Part shown: positions 1,824 to 35,816 of the stretch, piece after piece
How positions within the stretch are numbered: position 1 is the stretch's first letter
Layout: every line of letters starts with the position of its first letter
Assembly: GCA_043734325.1 (NCBI GenBank)
Contig: JAYTFN010000082.1
Coordinates: 1-36,636 of the forward strand
Reading direction: 5' to 3'
Length of the DNA stretch: 36,636 nucleotides
From: Candidatus Adlerbacteria bacterium
GTDB taxonomy: Bacteria > Patescibacteriota > Minisyncoccia > Phycocordibacterales > SBAW01
Position numbers and translations under genes: made by a program
Notes under the pieces: model-generated
Seen by the model: only the letters and a program-made list of their open reading frames with translations
The model's database searches: none
What the model was told of the DNA's origin: nothing

Positions 1824-3122
1824 CTACAAAAACATTTCTTTTCTACTTTTTCTTCGGTGATATTCTATTGCATACCGATGTGCCTCAGCGTTTGCTAAGA
1901 GAATATCCTTTTCGCGACCGACTATTGTTTCCTGACTACCTCTCAGTTCGCGAGGACGATGTCTTTCGTCTTTAACAACACCGACGACCGGGATACCTAT
2001 ACCGAGCTCCTTGAGTATATTTTCAGCTATGTTTATTTGGGCAGTTGCTCCATCCACAACAATCACCCGTGGAAGTGGCCACTCGGTGTGACCTAAACGA
2101 CGCGAAAGTATTTCCTTTAGAGAACCGGGATCGTCCCCAGCTTTGGCTGTTTTAATTTTAAACTTTCGATATTCCGCTTTTTGGATTATCCCCTCTTCTA
2201 CAACGGTCATTACCCCGACAGCCGCCGAGCCCGCAAGGTGGGCAACATCGTAGGCCTCTATACGGTTGTTCCCAATTGTAGAGGGTGATCGGTATTCATC
2301 TTTTATAAGCGACACATCTTGAATATGATTTAGCGCGAAAAGTTGACGCTTAAGTCTCGACGCTTCTTCGAACGCTTCGTCTTTTGCGGCGCATTTCATA
2401 TCTCGCTGGAGGCTTTTAATTAAAGTACTTTTCTTACCTTCAAATAGGAGCACTATGCGACGAATTATTTTTGCATAGTCAATCTTTGAAATTTCACCTG
2501 TACACACTCCTGGACACAGTCCAATATGCCGATTAAAGCACGGTTTATACCCATTACTTCGTACAAAGGACAGTCCTTTGTATTGCAAAGGACTGTCCTT
2601 TGTATTTTTTTTTTCTTGAGGAGGGGTGCACTTTTGGTCGCGGTATGGGAAAATTTTACGAATTATGCGCATCGCTTCCCTTAGCTGCATACCATGAGGG
2701 AAAGGTCCAAAGGTATGTGCGCGCGTTTCGACAGGTATATCAACATCAATGGTTTTACCTCTTGATACTAAAATTCTTGGAAAATCCTCTTTTGTAATCA
2801 CCACATAGTTAAAGCTTTTATCATCTCGAAGCGCAGTGTTGTAGTGCGGTTTATTAGTACGTATTAAGTTTGCTTCAAGTATGAGCGCTTCGAGCACAGA
2901 GTCAGTTTGCCGCCAATCAAGGTATTTTGCTTTATCTACCATCTGACCTATCAGTTGACTGCGTACTTGGGCAATATCCGCGACAAAGTAGGACCGCATC
3001 CGATCCGAAAGCGAAGTAGCCTTACCGATATAGAGCACTTTCTTTTTACTATCCAAAAAGAAATAAACCCCAGGAGTGTCCGGAATTTTCTTTACTCTTT
3101 TTTTAAATTCATCAAGTGTCAT
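1824..3122 (-). CDS. uvrC: Excinuclease ABC subunit C, short form without the C-terminal (HhH)2 domain
   Basis: It has a GIY-YIG motif (GVYFFLDSKKKVLYIGKATSLSDRMRSYF) and a UVR motif (EEASRLKRQLFALNHI). The C-terminal endonuclease domain is present (IEAYDVAHLAGSAAVG ... AEAHRYAIEYHRRKSRK). The protein ends 7 aa after the HRxK motif. Confidence 0.9.
   Translation of the reverse strand: MTLDEFKKRVKKIPDTPGVYFFLDSKKKVLYIGKATSLSDRMRSYFVADIAQVRSQLIGQMVDKAKYLDWRQTDSVLEALILEANLIRTNKPHYNTALRDDKSFNYVVITKEDFPRILVSRGKTIDVDIPVETRAHTFGPFPHGMQLREAMRIIRKIFPYRDQKCTPPQEKKNTKDSPLQYKGLSFVRSNGYKPCFNRHIGLCPGVCTGEISKIDYAKIIRRIVLLFEGKKSTLIKSLQRDMKCAAKDEAFEEASRLKRQLFALNHIQDVSLIKDEYRSPSTIGNNRIEAYDVAHLAGSAAVGVMTVVEEGIIQKAEYRKFKIKTAKAGDDPGSLKEILSRRLGHTEWPLPRVIVVDGATAQINIAENILKELGIGIPVVGVVKDERHRPRELRGSQETIVGREKDILLANAEAHRYAIEYHRRKSRKEMFL
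2562..2604. repeat. Palindromic element copy 1: perfect 19-bp stem with a 5-nt loop, inside uvrC
   Basis: The sequence is TACAAAGGACAGTCCTTTG TATTG CAAAGGACTGTCCTTTGTA. It is followed by T10 (2605-2614). It shares 37/44 identity with 16807-16850. Confidence 0.9.
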
Positions 3123-6162: not shown

Positions 6163-8292
6163 TTATTTTTTACGAGTGCGTGGCGGTTTCTTCTTTCCAT
6201 CATTTCCCAAGAGTGTAAAAAGCTCATCGCGAATAATTGCAGCAGTCTCAAAGTCGAGGTCCCGAACAGCATCTGCCATCTGCTGTCTTTTTTCAGCTAG
6301 AAACTTTTTAGGTTCTTTTTTATATAATTCAGAGTCAACAATTAAAAGTGAATTAACCGCCTTACTGTGTTCTGAGCGCATCTCTTCTGTAATATCTTTT
6401 ATACTTTTTTTAATGGTCGTGGGAGTGATACCGTGTTTTTTGTTGTGCGCTACTTGAATGATGCGACGTCGGTTCGTCTCGCCAATGGCTTTATCAAGGG
6501 AATTTGTCATACGATCGGCATAGAGAATAACTCGACCATCGACGTTTCGCGCAGCGCGGCCAATTGTTTGTATGAGTGATGTTTCCGATCGAAGAAATCC
6601 TTCCTTGTCAGCATCTAATATTGCAACAAGCTTCACTTCAGGAAGGTCGAGCCCTTCTCGGAGAAGATTCACCCCGACAAGCACATCATACGTTCCTTTT
6701 CTAAGTTCCGTGAGTGTCGTTATGCGGTCGAGTGTCTGCACATCACTGTGTAGGTACGCGGCTTTTATGTGTCGGTCTTTAAGGTATTCAGCTAAATCTT
6801 CTGCCATTTTTTTAGTGAGAGTCGTAACCAAAATTCGACCGCCGTCGGCAATAACTTTGTCCGCTTCTTCTAAAAAATCTTGCACCTGACCACGAGTCGT
6901 GGCACCAGAAGAAACACTTTCTGCAGCGTCCCCTGGCTGATCTGCAGCGGAAGAAAGCGTTTCTTCTAGTGTCTGCTTTTTCACGCTCCCTCCCGTCACC
7001 GGTCTCACAATAATTTCCGGGTCGACAAGACCGGTCGGACGAATAATTTGTTCGACTACATTCTTTCCACTTTTCTCGCGTTCATACGGCCCTGGTGTGG
7101 CCGAGGTGTATATGACTTGTCCAACTCTGTCTTCGAACTCATGAAATTGCAGCGGACGATTATCAATTGCGGACGGCAAGCGGAATCCGTAGTCTATTAA
7201 ATTTTCTTTGCGCGCCCGATCACCAGAGTACATACCGCCAATTTGCGGAATAGTAACGTGCGATTCGTCGATAATAGTTAAGAAGTCGGGCGTACCCTCT
7301 TTCGTATGCGGAAAATATTCAAGCAGAGAAAAGGGTGGCTGGCCCGGTTTACGTCCGTCGAAGTGGCGAGAATAATTTTCAATTCCGTTGCAGTAGCCGA
7401 CCTCTCGTATAAGAGCTAAGTCATGGTTAGTGCGTCGTTTAAGCCGCTCCGCTTCAAGTAACTTCCCCGCACGCTCAAACCGTGCAAGTTGGTTCTTAAG
7501 TTCAACTTTAATTTCTTCAATAGCTTCCAGTCTTTGAGACTCAGGAGTAACGTAATGCTTTGCAGGGAATAAAAATAGAGACTCCAAACGGTCAGTTTCG
7601 GCCCGTGTTATCGCATCTATAACGCGCACGCGCGCCACAATGTCGCCTTCAAACTCGACTCGGTACAACAACCGCTCACCTGTTGGCATTATCTCTATTG
7701 CGTTGCCCAGAGCGCGAAACTTTCCCGGTTCTAAGTCGGCAGGCGTACGTTCAAAGTAAACAGCGATAAGATCACGTATCAAATCTCCACGTAATTTTTT
7801 TGCACCTACTTTTAATTCAATATGTACCTTACGATACTCTTCGGGGCTTCCAAGCGCATATATGCATGACACAGACGCAACAATTATCACATCCTCACGC
7901 GTTAAAAGTGCTTGCGTTGAAGCGTGACGAAGCCGGTCAATTTCAACGTTTATTTGTGCCTCTTTTTCAATATACGTGTCGCTGTGCGGGATATACGCCT
8001 CCGGTTGATAGTAGTCGTAATACGAAACAAAATAGTGGACCGCATTATTCGGAAAAAATTCGCGATACTCCTGGGCCAATTGCGCCGCCAATGTCTTATT
8101 GTGCGCAATAACTAACGTAGGTTTTCCTACATGGGCTATGACGTTCGCACCGGTAAAAGTCTTACCTGAACCGGTGACACCAAGTAGTGTTTGATGCCGC
8201 TCCCTTCGCTCTATGCCTTGTATAAGCAGCTCAATAGCTTTAGGTTGGTCTCCAGCGGGAGAGTGTTCGGATTGTAAGGTAAGTTTTGCCAT
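6163..8292 (-). CDS. uvrB: Excinuclease ABC subunit B
   Basis: The 709-aa ORF has helicase motifs (GVTGSGKTFT, DESH, TSATPG, QTIGRAARN) and a C-terminal UVR domain (DLDFETAAIIRDELFTL). Confidence 0.95.
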   Translation of the reverse strand: MAKLTLQSEHSPAGDQPKAIELLIQGIERRERHQTLLGVTGSGKTFTGANVIAHVGKPTLVIAHNKTLAAQLAQEYREFFPNNAVHYFVSYYDYYQPEAYIPHSDTYIEKEAQINVEIDRLRHASTQALLTREDVIIVASVSCIYALGSPEEYRKVHIELKVGAKKLRGDLIRDLIAVYFERTPADLEPGKFRALGNAIEIMPTGERLLYRVEFEGDIVARVRVIDAITRAETDRLESLFLFPAKHYVTPESQRLEAIEEIKVELKNQLARFERAGKLLEAERLKRRTNHDLALIREVGYCNGIENYSRHFDGRKPGQPPFSLLEYFPHTKEGTPDFLTIIDESHVTIPQIGGMYSGDRARKENLIDYGFRLPSAIDNRPLQFHEFEDRVGQVIYTSATPGPYEREKSGKNVVEQIIRPTGLVDPEIIVRPVTGGSVKKQTLEETLSSAADQPGDAAESVSSGATTRGQVQDFLEEADKVIADGGRILVTTLTKKMAEDLAEYLKDRHIKAAYLHSDVQTLDRITTLTELRKGTYDVLVGVNLLREGLDLPEVKLVAILDADKEGFLRSETSLIQTIGRAARNVDGRVILYADRMTNSLDKAIGETNRRRIIQVAHNKKHGITPTTIKKSIKDITEEMRSEHSKAVNSLLIVDSELYKKEPKKFLAEKRQQMADAVRDLDFETAAIIRDELFTLLGNDGKKKPPRTRKK

Positions 8293-10249: not shown

Positions 10250-11212
10250 TTAGTGCAAAATATTTGTGATGAACTGACTGTCAAAGGCGTCACTGGATTC
10301 AATTACCGTAGCCACTTGCTGTGCCGGCGAAGGAAGAAAATGCCTATTTGCTCCCAGACATAGAAGCGCAATTGCGGCAACAACCGCACCCCCCAATAAC
10401 ATATCACGCGCGACAATGTCCATATGTAACACAAGGGCAAGTCCAATGGTAAGCACTAATATAGTAGCTATGCCTCCTAAAATCCAGTTCATTTTCACAG
10501 GATTACTGATAAATTTAAAAGTTTCTGCTGAGACCAACTGAGCAAACGAACTTGCAAAATGCGTATAGGGAAGCGCTGCAGAGTTTTGAACCTCCACAAT
10601 CGGAGTTTTTGAAGATGCAAAATATTGTACAACAAAAGTTGCAGAATTCCCTTTGTATACACCAGTAGCTGTCCCAACACCAATATCTGAATATACAGGT
10701 TTTAAAATATTTGCTCGATGAGACGGCGAATCCATCCATGCATGTACCACGTCTTTTGACTCATTGAAGCGTACTGCAAGATTTTCACCGGCGTATAGAT
10801 AGTTGTATCCGGAAGTAGTTATCCACATCCACGGAACTGAGCCATCGGGGCTCACATGAGCAAAATATCCTTTCAAAGCCATATCAGATGCCTTTGCCTG
10901 TGCAGCAGCATTGAGCAGTGCGTTTTCATGGAGCGGGCCAAGTTGCAAACGAACTCTCTCACCATTAGTTAGGGTGACAATGTCACTTGATATAACAGCA
11001 GCAAGGAAAGTTCCATCCGATTCACGCGCAACTAAACCTGCCGCCAAAAAACCCTCAACCGCCAGACTTAAACCCAAAAAAATAATAAGTGAAGTGCGCC
11101 CAAGCATTTTAGGGCGATACGCATTTTCATGCATAGGAGTAAAATGATACCTCACTTTCTTCCACAGTTGCATACTGAATATAGTAACACGGGACATTCT
11201 CTTGGTAGACAT
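10250..11212 (-). CDS. CAP/SCP (PR-1-like, YkwD-type) domain protein with N- and C-terminal TM segments
   Basis: The CAP core reads NAAAQAKASDMALKGYFAHVSPDG...YAGENLA...VHAWMDSPSHRANIL...IGVG. The start is uncertain, with alternative in-frame Met codons downstream (for example at 11107). Confidence 0.78.
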   Translation of the reverse strand: MSTKRMSRVTIFSMQLWKKVRYHFTPMHENAYRPKMLGRTSLIIFLGLSLAVEGFLAAGLVARESDGTFLAAVISSDIVTLTNGERVRLQLGPLHENALLNAAAQAKASDMALKGYFAHVSPDGSVPWMWITTSGYNYLYAGENLAVRFNESKDVVHAWMDSPSHRANILKPVYSDIGVGTATGVYKGNSATFVVQYFASSKTPIVEVQNSAALPYTHFASSFAQLVSAETFKFISNPVKMNWILGGIATILVLTIGLALVLHMDIVARDMLLGGAVVAAIALLCLGANRHFLPSPAQQVATVIESSDAFDSQFITNILH

Positions 11213-12098: not shown

Positions 12099-12545
12099 TT
12101 ATCTACTTTTAGTTTTTCGAAAGTGCCAAAGAGACAAGCCAAACAGTGCCAAAGTGGTGAGAGCTGATATTGCGCAATACAAACACAAGGCGTGTATAAC
12201 AGACAACTGAATATAAAAAATAAAATATAACGACAACAGGAATCCAATACCTGTATAGATGAGCGCGCCTAGTCGCAGAGCGCGCGATTCAGGTTCATAT
12301 GCCAATAACACGGAAAGGCACAGCATGTACCCGTAATACACAAGCCCCAAGTAGGACAGAGGCACTCCCATAAATTTTGAATATATACTAGACAAAACTA
12401 TCTCGCAGCCACTAATTGCACAGGACGGAATAATATTGAGGTATTGGTAATAGGCGAGGTAAAAAACGTCACCCAGCCCAATAAACGTAGCGGCTACTAA
12501 GTAATACGGCGCTAAATATATTTTTGATGGCAATTCTTCTTGCAT
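12099..12545 (-). CDS. Vitamin K epoxide reductase (VKOR) family membrane oxidoreductase, stand-alone
   Basis: There are four predicted TM helices, a loop Cys pair with the Ser/Gly-Pro motif (CAISGCEIVLSSIYSKFMGVPLSYLG) and an in-membrane CLYC redox motif. The start codon abuts the msrA stop (TAAATG). Confidence 0.75.
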   Translation of the reverse strand: MQEELPSKIYLAPYYLVAATFIGLGDVFYLAYYQYLNIIPSCAISGCEIVLSSIYSKFMGVPLSYLGLVYYGYMLCLSVLLAYEPESRALRLGALIYTGIGFLLSLYFIFYIQLSVIHALCLYCAISALTTLALFGLSLWHFRKTKSR

Positions 12546-15479: not shown

Positions 15480-15538
15480 ATTATTAGGTGCACCCAGTGA
15501 GGTGCTAACGCGCCGTTCGCGCAAAGGGAGTACTAAAC

Positions 15539-15859
15539 ATGGTAGAAGCAATAAATGAGTTCCTGTTGCAGGATAGAGTTTCAAGTATTATTGTGGTACT
15601 GCTCATTTTTGCATTTTTATGGTGGGGGGCCGAATTATTATTTCGACTGGGAAAAGAATACCGAGTTTCCCTAATCCAGATCATTAGGATCTGGATTAGG
15701 GAATGGGTAGAGTGGGCATGCCTAGCCATGCTTGCAATTGGGCTAGTACTAGCCCTTTTAGCTGGCTGGGTATGGATCCTTCTAGCCACTTTTGCCGTCG
15801 CCTGGCATGCCACGGCAAAAGTAAGCTACAGGTTTAAGTTGCGCTTGATCAAGAATTAA
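15539..15859 (+). CDS. Possible small Trp-rich membrane protein (106 aa); coding status uncertain
   Basis: An AAGGGAG RBS lies about 9 nt upstream of the ATG, and 2-3 hydrophobic segments are predicted. However, the ORF contains three long perfect inverted repeats, and a co-extensive shadow ORF lies on the opposite strand. Confidence 0.45.
   Translation: MVEAINEFLLQDRVSSIIVVLLIFAFLWWGAELLFRLGKEYRVSLIQIIRIWIREWVEWACLAMLAIGLVLALLAGWVWILLATFAVAWHATAKVSYRFKLRLIKN
15667..15703. repeat. Perfect 16-bp inverted repeat with a 5-nt loop
   Basis: TTCCCTAATCCAGATC attag GATCTGGATTAGGGAA. Confidence 0.9.
15740..15755. repeat. Perfect 16-bp palindrome
   Basis: GGGCTAGTACTAGCCC, followed by TTTTAG. Confidence 0.85.
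15789..15821. repeat. Perfect 10-bp inverted repeat enclosing a GGCATGCC palindrome
   Basis: CTTTTGCCGT cgcctggcatgcc ACGGCAAAAG. Confidence 0.85.
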
Positions 15860-15909: not shown

Positions 15910-17106
15910 TTACTGCAAATACTTTTTTCCTTTTATTCTATCCGGTAAATAAGATTCGGTGTCATATTTTGTATAATTTTTTCCATAGCCGAGATTTTTC
16001 ATAAGTTTGGTCGGAGCATTCCGGATACTCATAGGGATAGGTAAGTTTCCCATCTGCTTCACATCCTTAAGCGCCTCGAAATACGCATCGTGTGAGTTTC
16101 TGCTTTTCTTGCATTCTGCCAAATACGCGACGCCGTGGGCCAAATTTATTTGACACTCGGGGTATCCTATAATTTCACACGCTCGAAATACTTCGTTCGC
16201 CACAACAAGCGCTGTCGGGACCGCAAGACCAATGTCTTCACTGGCGAAAATTACCATACGCCTAGCTATAAACAACGGGTCTTCGCCTGCGTCTACCATG
16301 CGAGCTAGGTAGTAGAGCGCCGCATCACCTTGGCTTGCACGCATTGATTTTATAAAGGCCGATATGGTGTTGTAGTGCTCTTCCCCTTTTTTATCGTACC
16401 GAAGGTGTTTGCTCTGCACCGTTTCCTTAAGCGTCTCAAGCGATATTTTCCCGTACAGCTTTTGCGTATTTTCTACCACTGTAATTGCTTGTCGAGCATC
16501 CCCTTGCGCCATTTCAATGAGCCAGTCACGAGCATCTTTGGGGATTTTTTTACTTACCTTTTCACCGAGCAGCTGTCGAGTCGCTCGCGCCAGTATATTC
16601 TCCATATCAGGAGGCGTTAGTTCATTAAGGACAAATACCCGACAACGCGACAAAAGTGCAGGAATTACCTCAAACGAAGGGTTCTCGGTCGTAGCGCCTA
16701 TAAGTGTTAACTCTCCCCGTTCTACAAAAGGTAGCAAGAAATCCTGCTGGGCTTTATTAAAGCGATGTATCTCATCTATAAATAGCACTTTAGGCTGCCC
16801 GGGAAATACAAAGGACTGTCCTTTGTACTGCCGAGAACTGTCCTTTGCGTTCATGCCCAAAATGCGTTTTATGTCGTCTTTGCCTGAGTCTACGGCTGAA
16901 AGTTCATAAAAATCGGCTTCTAAAGCGTTAGCGTAAATCCGCGCAAGGGTCGTTTTTCCGCTCCCAGGCGGCCCCCATAACAAAAAGGAAAAAAGATGTT
17001 TGCCTTCTGTGGCCTCGCGCAGAGGTTTTTTCTTCCCAACCAGATGTTCTTGTCCGACAAACTCATCCAGAGACTTCGGCCGAATTTTACTGGCAAGTGG
17101 TTCCAT
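15910..17106 (-). CDS. rarA: Replication-associated recombination protein A (AAA+ ATPase RarA/MgsA)
   Basis: It has Walker A GPPGSGKTT, Walker B LFIDEIHRFNKAQQD, GATTENPSFEV, and the MgsA C-terminal domains (DAALYYLARM, ASEDIGLA, RNAPTKLMK). Confidence 0.92.
   Translation of the reverse strand: MEPLASKIRPKSLDEFVGQEHLVGKKKPLREATEGKHLFSFLLWGPPGSGKTTLARIYANALEADFYELSAVDSGKDDIKRILGMNAKDSSRQYKGQSFVFPGQPKVLFIDEIHRFNKAQQDFLLPFVERGELTLIGATTENPSFEVIPALLSRCRVFVLNELTPPDMENILARATRQLLGEKVSKKIPKDARDWLIEMAQGDARQAITVVENTQKLYGKISLETLKETVQSKHLRYDKKGEEHYNTISAFIKSMRASQGDAALYYLARMVDAGEDPLFIARRMVIFASEDIGLAVPTALVVANEVFRACEIIGYPECQINLAHGVAYLAECKKSRNSHDAYFEALKDVKQMGNLPIPMSIRNAPTKLMKNLGYGKNYTKYDTESYLPDRIKGKKYLQ
16807..16850. 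repeat. Palindromic element copy 2, inside rarA
   Basis: TACAAAGGACTGTCCTTTGTACTGCCGAGAACTGTCCTTTGCGT shares 37/44 identity with 2562-2605. Its first 21 nt form a perfect palindrome. Confidence 0.85.
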
Positions 17107-35787: not shown

Positions 35788-35816
35788 AAGTGTCAAACAC
35801 CGAGTGTTTGACACTT
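35788..35816. promoter_or_regulatory. Perfect 13-bp inverted repeat (operator-like) upstream of the DUF5678/protease pair
   Basis: AAGTGTCAAACAC cga GTGTTTGACACTT. Each arm contains TTGACA when read outward. It lies 129 nt upstream of the ATG at 35945. Confidence 0.5.

Follow-up and report, generated by a model that had tools for sequence, protein, structure and literature searches.

A palindromic doublet translated within rarA of a Candidatus Adlerbacteria contig is probably a partly decayed member of a REP/REPIN-like family dispersed across Patescibacteria

The 36,636-nt stretch of Candidatus Adlerbacteria DNA analyzed here (contig JAYTFN010000082.1 of assembly GCA_043734325.1; "the window" denotes this whole stretch) carries, within its rarA gene, a palindromic segment that is translated in frame and that has a better preserved sister copy in the uvrC gene of the same contig. 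We consider it probable that the segment in rarA represents a copy, by now partly decayed, of a palindromic doublet resembling repetitive extragenic palindromic (REP) elements and their inverted dimers (REPINs), and that it belongs to a family dispersed across Patescibacteria whose copies are mobilized by a Y1 transposase and persist in tolerant protein loops. An earlier note on this DNA had described the segment as a mobile element inserted in frame. The results presented below confirm the observation and support this interpretation, which is essentially right. The features of the window concerned are the following.

15910-17106, minus strand: host gene rarA (mgsA), encoding 398 aa, intact, with every AAA+ motif present.
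16807-16848, minus strand: palindromic doublet cassette in rarA, 42 nt or 14 codons, encoding AKDSSRQYKGQSFV, residues 87-100.
16807-16827, no strand assigned: intact unit of the rarA cassette, a perfect 21-nt palindrome, TACAAAGGACtGTCCTTTGTA, with a 10-bp stem and a 1-nt centre.
16829-16848, no strand assigned: decayed unit of the rarA cassette, with core CCGAGAACTGTCCTTTG and a broken stem.
1824-3122, minus strand: host gene uvrC, encoding 432 aa, a short form with the Pfam domains GIY-YIG, UVR and UvrC_RNaseH.
2562-2603 (the copy reaches 2604), minus strand: sister doublet in uvrC, near-perfect, 42 nt, encoding TKDSPLQYKGLSFV.

The open reading frame (ORF) at 15910-17106 can be identified as RarA/MgsA because its product contains the Pfam domains MgsA_C (5.8e-49), AAA_assoc_2 and AAA. 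The same protein, identical in sequence, is encoded on four contigs, which come from two or more sequencing runs. On the coding strand the cassette reads GCA AAG GAC AGT TCT CGG CAG TAC AAA GGA CAG TCC TTT GTA, which is translated as A87-KDSSRQYKGQSFV-100. The 44-nt string that the earlier note placed at 16807-16850 is found letter for letter on the plus strand, but the coding cassette occupies only 42 nt of it (16807-16848), the final 2 nt being part of a flanking Asn codon. The note was correct in stating that the left 21 nt form a perfect palindrome and that the right arm has diverged. Base-by-base comparison with the uvrC copy showed that the three substitutions of the decayed unit all lie in one arm, the partner arm being unchanged, and that three of the eight core stem pairs are lost. 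Because the substitutions are one-armed, folding is left to the intact unit alone; as single-stranded DNA (ssDNA), the 50-nt rarA segment has a folding energy of -8.2 kcal/mol (z -2.8).

The sister copy in uvrC presents a different picture. Its two units are reverse-complementary and together form a single 19-bp hairpin, whose arms (2562-2580 and 2586-2604) show 100% complementarity and whose unit centres are A and T. As ssDNA it has a predicted free energy (dG) of -21.5 kcal/mol (z -11.5), and none of 200 shuffled sequences folds as well. The gapless match between the two copies, identical at 37 of 44 positions, was confirmed by a base-by-base count, and positions 16805-16828 (24 nt) are an exact reverse-complement match of positions 2561-2584. 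The two copies also share their 5-nt spacer (TATTG in rarA versus TACTG in uvrC), and hence they have the same orientation relative to the gene; they are, as had been claimed, read in the same frame. The note considered it very unlikely that two unrelated genes would share such a segment in the same frame by chance. This holds for the match itself: when up to three mismatches are allowed, the 21-mer is found as only three units in the window, while 0.01 are expected from shuffled sequences and none of 100 shuffles reached the observed count. The shared frame, on the other hand, is weak evidence given only two copies, as it would arise by chance in one case out of six.

Two side observations concern uvrC. 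On the plus strand, and thus antisense to the gene, the region 2561-2615 scores strongly as an intrinsic-terminator-like structure, with a 20-bp stem followed by T11, a run that corresponds to Lys-Lys-Lys codons of uvrC. Furthermore, Pfam at E<=0.001 gives no additional C-terminal domain for the 432-aa window UvrC, and its 120 nearest homologues range from 405 to 487 aa.

Comparison with orthologues shows that the closest relatives lack both segments. The 120 nearest RarA orthologues, all from Patescibacteria and 76-86% identical, are highly conserved save for one loop, which is 9 to 43 residues long and which has a short form (9-11 residues) in 46 of them. In the two closest proteins, P0002 and P0003 (85-86% identical), a stretch of four codons is found where the window has 14, so that the loop reads ILGKK-DQIQ-FS or ILGKK-GQIN-FV (P0002/P0003) as opposed to ILGMN-AKDSSRQYKGQSFV-FP in the window; the DNA of the empty allele encoding P0002 (locus L116) has 12 nt in place of the 42 of the window. 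A neighbour-joining RarA tree built with the loop excluded places the window protein as sister to the empty P0002 and P0003. Thus, the segment is not broadly shared among RarA orthologues as a conserved stretch of protein, which is the pattern that the earlier note had named as speaking against an insertion. The closest UvrC, P0242 (locus L171; 76% identical), lacks exactly 14 codons in a loop between two conserved cysteines, which reads C-TPAEDMIKLGKKPKA-C in P0242 versus C-TPPQEKKN[TKDSPLQYKGLSFV]RSNGYKP-C in the window. The uvrC insertion is a clean gain of 42 nt, and the empty allele contains nothing similar. Relative to the closest orthologues, RarA has gained 10 residues and UvrC 14, and both genes are intact. 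P0003 (empty RarA) and P0242 (empty UvrC) apparently lie on one 47,288-nt contig from the same source; if so, a single close relative is without both inserts. The rarA loop of L116 and the uvrC loop of L171, both empty, each contain GGCAAAAAA, which could be a coincidence in AT-rich Lys codons or could reflect a target preference.

The rarA cassette lies, as the note had stated, between Walker A (GPPGSGKT) and Walker B (LFIDEIHRF), just ahead of the latter. The window protein, estimated in the note to be about 10 residues longer than E. coli RarA, is exactly 10 residues longer in that loop than E. coli MgsA (PDB 3PVS), in which the region is a gap. In an AlphaFold2 (AF2) model of the window RarA, the per-residue confidence (predicted local distance difference test, pLDDT) falls below 50 exactly at residues 87-101, which are modelled as coil, flanked by a helix (76-82) and by the Walker B strand (106-111). 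According to this model, the insert is a low-confidence, unstructured loop just ahead of the Walker B strand, and hence a permissive site.

The same loops of RarA and UvrC are occupied in other genomes, and these cases inform us about what is being maintained. The RarA loop of L168 contains, at the same place, a 42-nt doublet, AAGGACGGTCCTT...AAGGACCGTCCTT, and that of L169 (P0007, GCA_028866155; about 10255-10297) contains another, CAAAGGTCAGACCTTCG...CAAAGGTCAGACCTTTG. In both units of the L169 doublet GGAC/GTCC has become GGTC/GACC, which amounts to four coordinated changes by which the pairing is kept, while the peptide of the first unit is radically altered (D to V and S to R). Thus, to the question whether substitutions preserve the pairing or the peptide, which the note had raised as a check, the answer is neither in the decayed rarA unit, and the pairing but not the peptide in L169. 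The uvrC loop of L073, from genome JAUSIO01, contains a near-perfect doublet despite a nucleotide identity of only ~70% in the flanking gene. Other UvrC orthologues have single units in the loop, for instance TAC AAA GGT CAG TCC TTT GTA in L172. Because the L073 doublet is near-perfect and the L169 changes are compensatory, the view that the element is maintained as DNA rather than as peptide is supported. As regards the rarA copy of the window, the proposal that it is an older insertion is plausible, since the substitutions of its decayed unit keep neither pairing nor peptide; however, it is unproven, because selection against a 19-bp hairpin within rarA would look the same as age.

The RarA loop also accommodates sequences of another kind. 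In L170 (P0104, 10001-11203) it is filled by an unrelated GC-rich hairpin of ~80 nt (RNA dG -62.9 kcal/mol), which indicates that a second, unrelated family of palindromic elements uses the same loop. In the crude RarA tree the different insert types are interspersed among empty alleles, a pattern that suggests repeated gain and loss at permissive loops, although the tree is too weak to count events. Two side observations can be added: the loop peptide of L170 (RRSGPLGQVLPFA...) is common to many orthologues dispersed over the tree, and half-compensated forms of the unit (GGTC/GTCC and GGAC/GACC) adjoin transposase genes in L123 and L160.

The palindrome is not confined to these two genes. The core of the family is CAAAGGACNGTCCTTTG. 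Scanning one genome per species with a 17-nt core retrieved at least 115 stretches, a large number of which lie in Patescibacteria and Saccharibacteria; chance is estimated to give roughly as many single hits, but in the matches the palindrome continues past the stretch that was searched for, and recurrent doublets have their units 20-23 nt apart. Fewer than one chance match is estimated for the exact 21-mer TACAAAGGACNGTCCTTTGTA, which was found on 49 metagenome contigs, 11 of which come from one metagenome (Ga0209542). Doublets are additionally present in L073, L070, L104, L120, L143 and L168. A flank profile of 61 distinct copies shows TA..TA and, beyond that, a weak palindromic extension only; neither a GTAG nor a CGTC tag is present in it. 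The 21-mer metagenome set comprises 68 units, which are distributed as follows.

29 of 68 units: in or beside a transposase gene.
19 of 68 units: deep inside an ORF of >=150 aa.
8 of 68 units: at the edge of an ORF.
12 of 68 units: without a long ORF.

Hence, about half of the non-transposase units (19/39) lie deep within ORFs of >=150 aa. The intragenic hosts identified by Pfam include PheT, an M13 peptidase, a class-V aminotransferase, an RluA-type pseudouridine synthase, an HhH-GPD (MutY-like) glycosylase, an Fe/Mn superoxide dismutase (SOD), MnmA and RecR; both host genes in the window are replication/repair genes. The intragenic copies occupy all three frames and contain zero stops, and persistence in frame is a general feature of the family. 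A single unit is open in all six frames, reading YKGxSFV, TKDxPL or QRTVLC, and the stop-free state is therefore intrinsic to the element. This qualifies the conclusion of the note that the element is mobile and selected for in-frame, stop-free insertion: the mobile reading is supported, but absence of stops need not be selected, and selection would act mainly on the insertion site and on the length. A scan of viral contigs with the 21-mer gave zero matches and hence no sign of phage carriage, an Rfam scan of the whole window detected tRNA only, with neither copy matching an RNA family, and the GC skew, which is negative throughout the window, is uninformative on the strand of insertion.

The family is associated with a transposase gene at loci outside the window. 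In L051, the palindrome is present on the flanks of an ORF (217-915) encoding a 232-aa protein that matches Pfam Y1_Tnp (E 5.8e-8), the IS200-like family of HUH transposases. A tblastn search with this protein detected homologues beside the palindrome in 26 loci that had been retrieved by the palindrome alone, including 15 of the 49 metagenome loci. At these loci one palindrome is located 13-30 nt upstream of the start codon and a second one at or just after the stop codon, or in the last ~12 codons; often, a third one is present within the ORF at about residue 55. The best NCBIfam match of the transposase is NF047646, REP_Tyr_transpos (REP-associated tyrosine transposase, RAYT), with E 1e-10. 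The HUH motif (N-H-F-H) and Y140/Y144-x-H-x-N (Y-x3-Y-x-H-x-N) are invariant across 44 homologues. A search of the PDB with the single sequence found nothing, but when an AF2 model of the protein (pLDDT 87) was compared with PDB folds by Foldseek, the top match was 4ER8 (E 1.5e-6, TM-score 0.60), which is the E. coli RAYT bound to a REP hairpin, followed by IS608, ISDra2 and IS200 TnpA. There are at least 7,838 homologues (E up to 1e-10) and, where the source names them, they are annotated as 'transposase' of Patescibacteria-group bacteria.

With respect to the palindrome inside the transposase ORF, we observed that in examples such as L051, L158, L129 and L133 it is located roughly 25 residues before the HUH motif, and that the corresponding peptide, (K/Q/E)G(R/L/P)(S/T)(F/L), is found in most of 120 transposase homologues. 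It could serve autoregulation, or it could be the trace of an ancient self-insertion.

Based on this, we propose the following scenario. The doublet consists of two inverted units of ~21 nt at a spacing of 22 nt, 42 nt overall, and the units would form ssDNA hairpins that act as the recognition ends of a RAYT-like Y1 (HUH) transposase; the palindromes do bracket the gene, and the enzyme would presumably bind them. By analogy with what has been proposed for REPINs and shown for IS200/IS605, an enzyme encoded elsewhere in the genome may, in trans, copy solo units and doublets to new sites via ssDNA, in which case solo units and inverted doublets would be non-autonomous derivatives. In small, gene-dense genomes many such insertions would hit genes. 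Their persistence there may be favoured by a unit that is stop-free in six frames and by a doublet that comprises whole codons (14), as is seen in the 42-nt gain in uvrC, and only copies in permissive surface loops would be expected to survive purifying selection. The copies described here do lie in loops: the one in RarA occupies a permissive loop between the helix that follows Walker A and the Walker B strand, and the one in UvrC a variable loop between conserved cysteines. After fixation in rarA, the copy may no longer have been maintained as a long hairpin, and one unit would have drifted. We infer, in particular, that the Y1 enzyme moves the element and that this genome encodes one, as well as the order and the age of the events.

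Several points weigh against this scenario. No Y1 homologue is present in the 36.6-kb window, nor in three loci (L010, L073 and L076) of JAUSIO01, the closest relative bearing the element, and the copy number is low (three units at two sites in 36.6 kb). The transposase scores 41.6 bits, while the curated NCBIfam cut-off for RAYTs is 80, and a profile search against the PDB gave a marginal match to ISDra2 only (E 0.08). We sought a target-site duplication and a conserved flanking tag, and none is visible in the flank profile of the 61 distinct copies. Compared with the empty allele, rarA shows a net gain of 30 nt and not 42, its flanks have diverged and the boundaries are blurred; thus, while the insertion event can be reconstructed for uvrC, no clean one can be reconstructed for rarA, where microhomology with a pre-existing K-G-Q sequence is possible. 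The repeated occupancy of the RarA loop could partly be due to old vertical inheritance followed by decay, and the neighbour-joining tree that argues against such inheritance is crude. Finally, we know of no demonstration, in any family, of REP transposition driven by a RAYT, and the mobilization proposed here is an analogy.

Three other explanations deserve consideration. The palindrome might be a DNA or RNA motif with a function for the host, spread by selection and recombination, its link to the transposase being secondary; it could be, for instance, the site of a nucleoid or regulatory protein, a DNA-uptake signal, a terminator or an mRNA-stabilizing hairpin. The conservation of the core over very distant lineages, with flanks that differ between genomes, would fit such a role, as would the perfect palindromes that persist at the uvrC site in relatives with ~70% flanking identity. 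The resemblance of the uvrC doublet on the plus strand to an intrinsic terminator (20-bp stem, T11) and the T-runs after some intergenic copies (L017, L057) point in the same direction, and there is precedent for classical REPs being co-opted in this way (PMC3733652). Nevertheless, we regard this explanation as unlikely. The terminator-like reading of the uvrC doublet is antisense to a run of same-strand genes, Rfam matches are absent, and copies within PheT, SOD, RecR and others have no plausible regulatory placement. Moreover, in the unbiased 21-mer set a Y1 transposase gene contains or adjoins 29 of 68 units, and the rarA copy is decaying and hence not maintained.

A different possibility, for which we see little likelihood, is that no transposase was involved in the origin of the segments, and that they were generated by template switching or slippage, promoted by a hairpin, at an AAAGGxCAG sequence already in place, or by gene conversion from another copy via microhomology, in loops that are hotspots because indels are tolerated there. 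The empty RarA reads K-K-G-Q-(L/I)-Q-F where the filled one reads Y-K-G-Q-S-F-V-F, such that part of the second unit could pre-date the insert; this agrees with the net gain of 30 nt rather than 42 in rarA, with the lack of both a target-site duplication and a flanking tag, and with the presence of unrelated hairpins in the same loop elsewhere, such as the ~80-nt GC-rich one of L170. It does not agree with the uvrC copy, which is a clean gain of 42 nt relative to an empty allele without resemblance to it, nor with the fact that the window copies share, besides the stems, the spacer and the flanking TA (24-nt exact match), nor with the occurrence of an identical 21-mer in dozens of unrelated genes and beside a dedicated transposase. 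Highly improbable, in our opinion, is that we are dealing with an ordinary RarA loop, inherited vertically and under protein constraint, whose likeness to uvrC is coincidental or convergent. A similar peptide, K[DV]x[SP]...KGx[ST][FL], is indeed found at that place in five of the 120 nearest orthologues; the region is, however, predicted to be disordered, and this explanation is already contradicted by the chance expectation for the 21-mer (0.01 per window), by the nearest orthologues being without the segment, and by L169, in which the palindrome is conserved and the peptide is not.

Returning to the REP/REPIN-like reading, it is instructive to compare the element with known systems. REP/REPIN-RAYT systems, or 'REPtrons' (Nunvar 2010, PMC2817692; Bertels & Rainey 2011, PMC3116915; Ton-Hoang 2012, PMC3333891; Messing 2012, PMC3479197) share with it short hairpin-forming palindromes that occur singly and as inverted dimers, as well as copies on both sides of a gene for a Y1 HUH transposase, to which RAYTs are here the closest in family and fold (at the 26 related loci, not in the window). 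They also share in-frame intragenic copies, often dimers and often in genes of DNA replication and repair (here uvrC, rarA, a MutY-like gene and recR). In several species, Di Nocera et al. (2013; PMC3733652) found REPs contained wholly within ORFs, mostly dimers encoding 20-30 residues. Many of their host genes function in DNA synthesis or repair (uvrA, uvrB, uvrD, polA, recBCD, dnaE2), and tRNA synthetase and pseudouridine synthase genes are hosts as well (PMC3733652); the host-gene bias seen here is strikingly similar to that list. The differences are nonetheless considerable. The family in Patescibacteria, a host clade that none of the REP/RAYT papers retrieved in the literature searches mentions, has neither a GTAG nor a CGTC tag, and its AT-rich unit forms an almost perfect palindrome around a single central nucleotide, whereas the classical unit is a GC-rich imperfect stem-loop. 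About every second non-transposase copy lies in a gene here, while classical REPs are mostly extragenic and intragenic ones are a documented minority in those families (PMC3733652). The transposase, lastly, forms a distinct clade of ~230 aa that scores below the curated RAYT cut-off and carries the palindrome within its own ORF.

The classic example of palindromes inserted in frame is that of the Rickettsia palindromic elements (RPEs; Ogata 2000, Science; Ogata 2002, PMC186582; summarized in PMC10969869). As with the family described here, palindromic repeats are found in frame within unrelated housekeeping genes of a reduced, gene-dense genome, the added peptide is placed where the protein fold allows it, and the copies decay at differing rates. 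However, RPEs are ~100-150 bp long and encode 30-50 residues, as compared with 21-42 nt here, and two short ones, RPE-4 and RPE-6, fall into the CGTC class of REPs without a dedicated transposase, whereas the present family lacks CGTC and has a candidate transposase. It belongs to another phylum, has no apparent sequence relationship to RPEs, and is set apart from RPE-1 to RPE-10 by size and tag.

The likeness to the IS200/IS605 family and its miniature derivatives (palindrome-associated transposable elements, PATEs) lies in a Y1 gene between subterminal hairpins and in dispersed, short, hairpin-only derivatives. The HUH motif, the catalytic Tyr and the palindromes at both ends (in related loci, none in the window) are also shared, as would be an ssDNA chemistry, with which a target duplication is not expected. 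Contrary to IS200/IS605, whose left and right ends differ from each other and have guide sequences, the family has the same symmetric palindrome at both ends, and its best fold match is a RAYT rather than the TnpA of IS608 or ISDra2. HIP1 of cyanobacteria and similar sequences resemble the element in being short palindromes that are abundant in coding sequence. HIP1, however, is an 8-mer embedded in existing codons; it causes no protein-lengthening insertion and has no associated transposase.

The principle is therefore not new, since intragenic, codogenic REPs enriched in repair genes and the Rickettsia RPEs have already been published. We found no description of the tagless palindrome family, of Patescibacteria as its host clade, or of the transposase clade; literature searches for REP, RAYT or REPIN combined with Patescibacteria or CPR (candidate phyla radiation) found nothing, which does not by itself prove novelty. 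More tentatively, and with slightly less than even confidence, we suggest that Patescibacteria carry an undescribed class of REP/RAYT systems with an identifiable transposase, whose palindrome is adapted to genes (six open frames, a whole-codon doublet) and repeatedly colonizes the same tolerant loops in core proteins of replication and repair (RarA, UvrC and others). If this is true, such a class would be a systematic source of loop-length variation in minimal proteomes, and an RPE-like phenomenon for which the responsible transposase can be identified. The finding by itself is of moderate interest, which would become greater if the family-wide picture, in which loops of core proteins in Patescibacteria are shaped by such elements, holds.

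How palindromic repeats enter genes and persist there has so far been hard to study: RPEs and CGTC-type REPs are without a known transposase, and the classical RAYT-linked REPs are mostly intergenic. Judged from its sequences, the family described here pairs a specific and readily recognizable Y1 transposase with non-transposase copies of which about half are predicted to be translated. It may thus provide a tractable system for in vitro tests of RAYT-type mobilization, as well as a marker of recent insertion and loss events in uncultivated Patescibacteria. It offers, in addition, an explanation for the puzzling variation in loop length of otherwise highly conserved core proteins. Annotators should be aware that inserts of this kind can be mistaken for protein motifs specific to a lineage, and that they can upset alignments and phylogenies.

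Other palindromes are present in these genomes. The window contains nine perfect hairpins with a stem of >=9 bp, as compared with 1.2 in shuffled sequences. A hairpin at 15667-15703 has a perfect 16-bp stem (TTCCCTAATCCAGATCattagGATCTGGATTAGGGAA) and lies within an ORF (15539-15859, plus strand) that adjoins rarA and encodes a membrane-like protein of 106 aa. Its sequence is unrelated to that of the rarA element and is found only in the same-population contigs L117 and L118; this may represent a further case of palindrome insertion into a gene. A hairpin with a perfect 13-bp stem (AAGTGTCAAACACcgaGTGTTTGACACTT) is located at 35788-35816, at the junction of two ORFs. Perfect 25-nt palindromes built on AAGG...CCTT (for example TTCCGCAAGGCGACGCCTTGCGGAA) are present in L116 (~15501-15525), L169 (~12406-12430) and L076 (~7186-7210), those of L116 and L169 being within called genes, tgt and a Zincin_1 gene. 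This suggests that several palindrome families inhabit genes in these genomes. Finally, in L055, L057 and L059, from the Saccharibacteria genome CAZVGL01, the palindrome is surrounded by TTATCCCCA...TGGGGATAA. These sequences look like DnaA boxes, but would be explained more simply as a longer extension of the palindrome in that genome; one TTATCCCCA-type cluster in CAZVGL01 surrounds a transposase gene.

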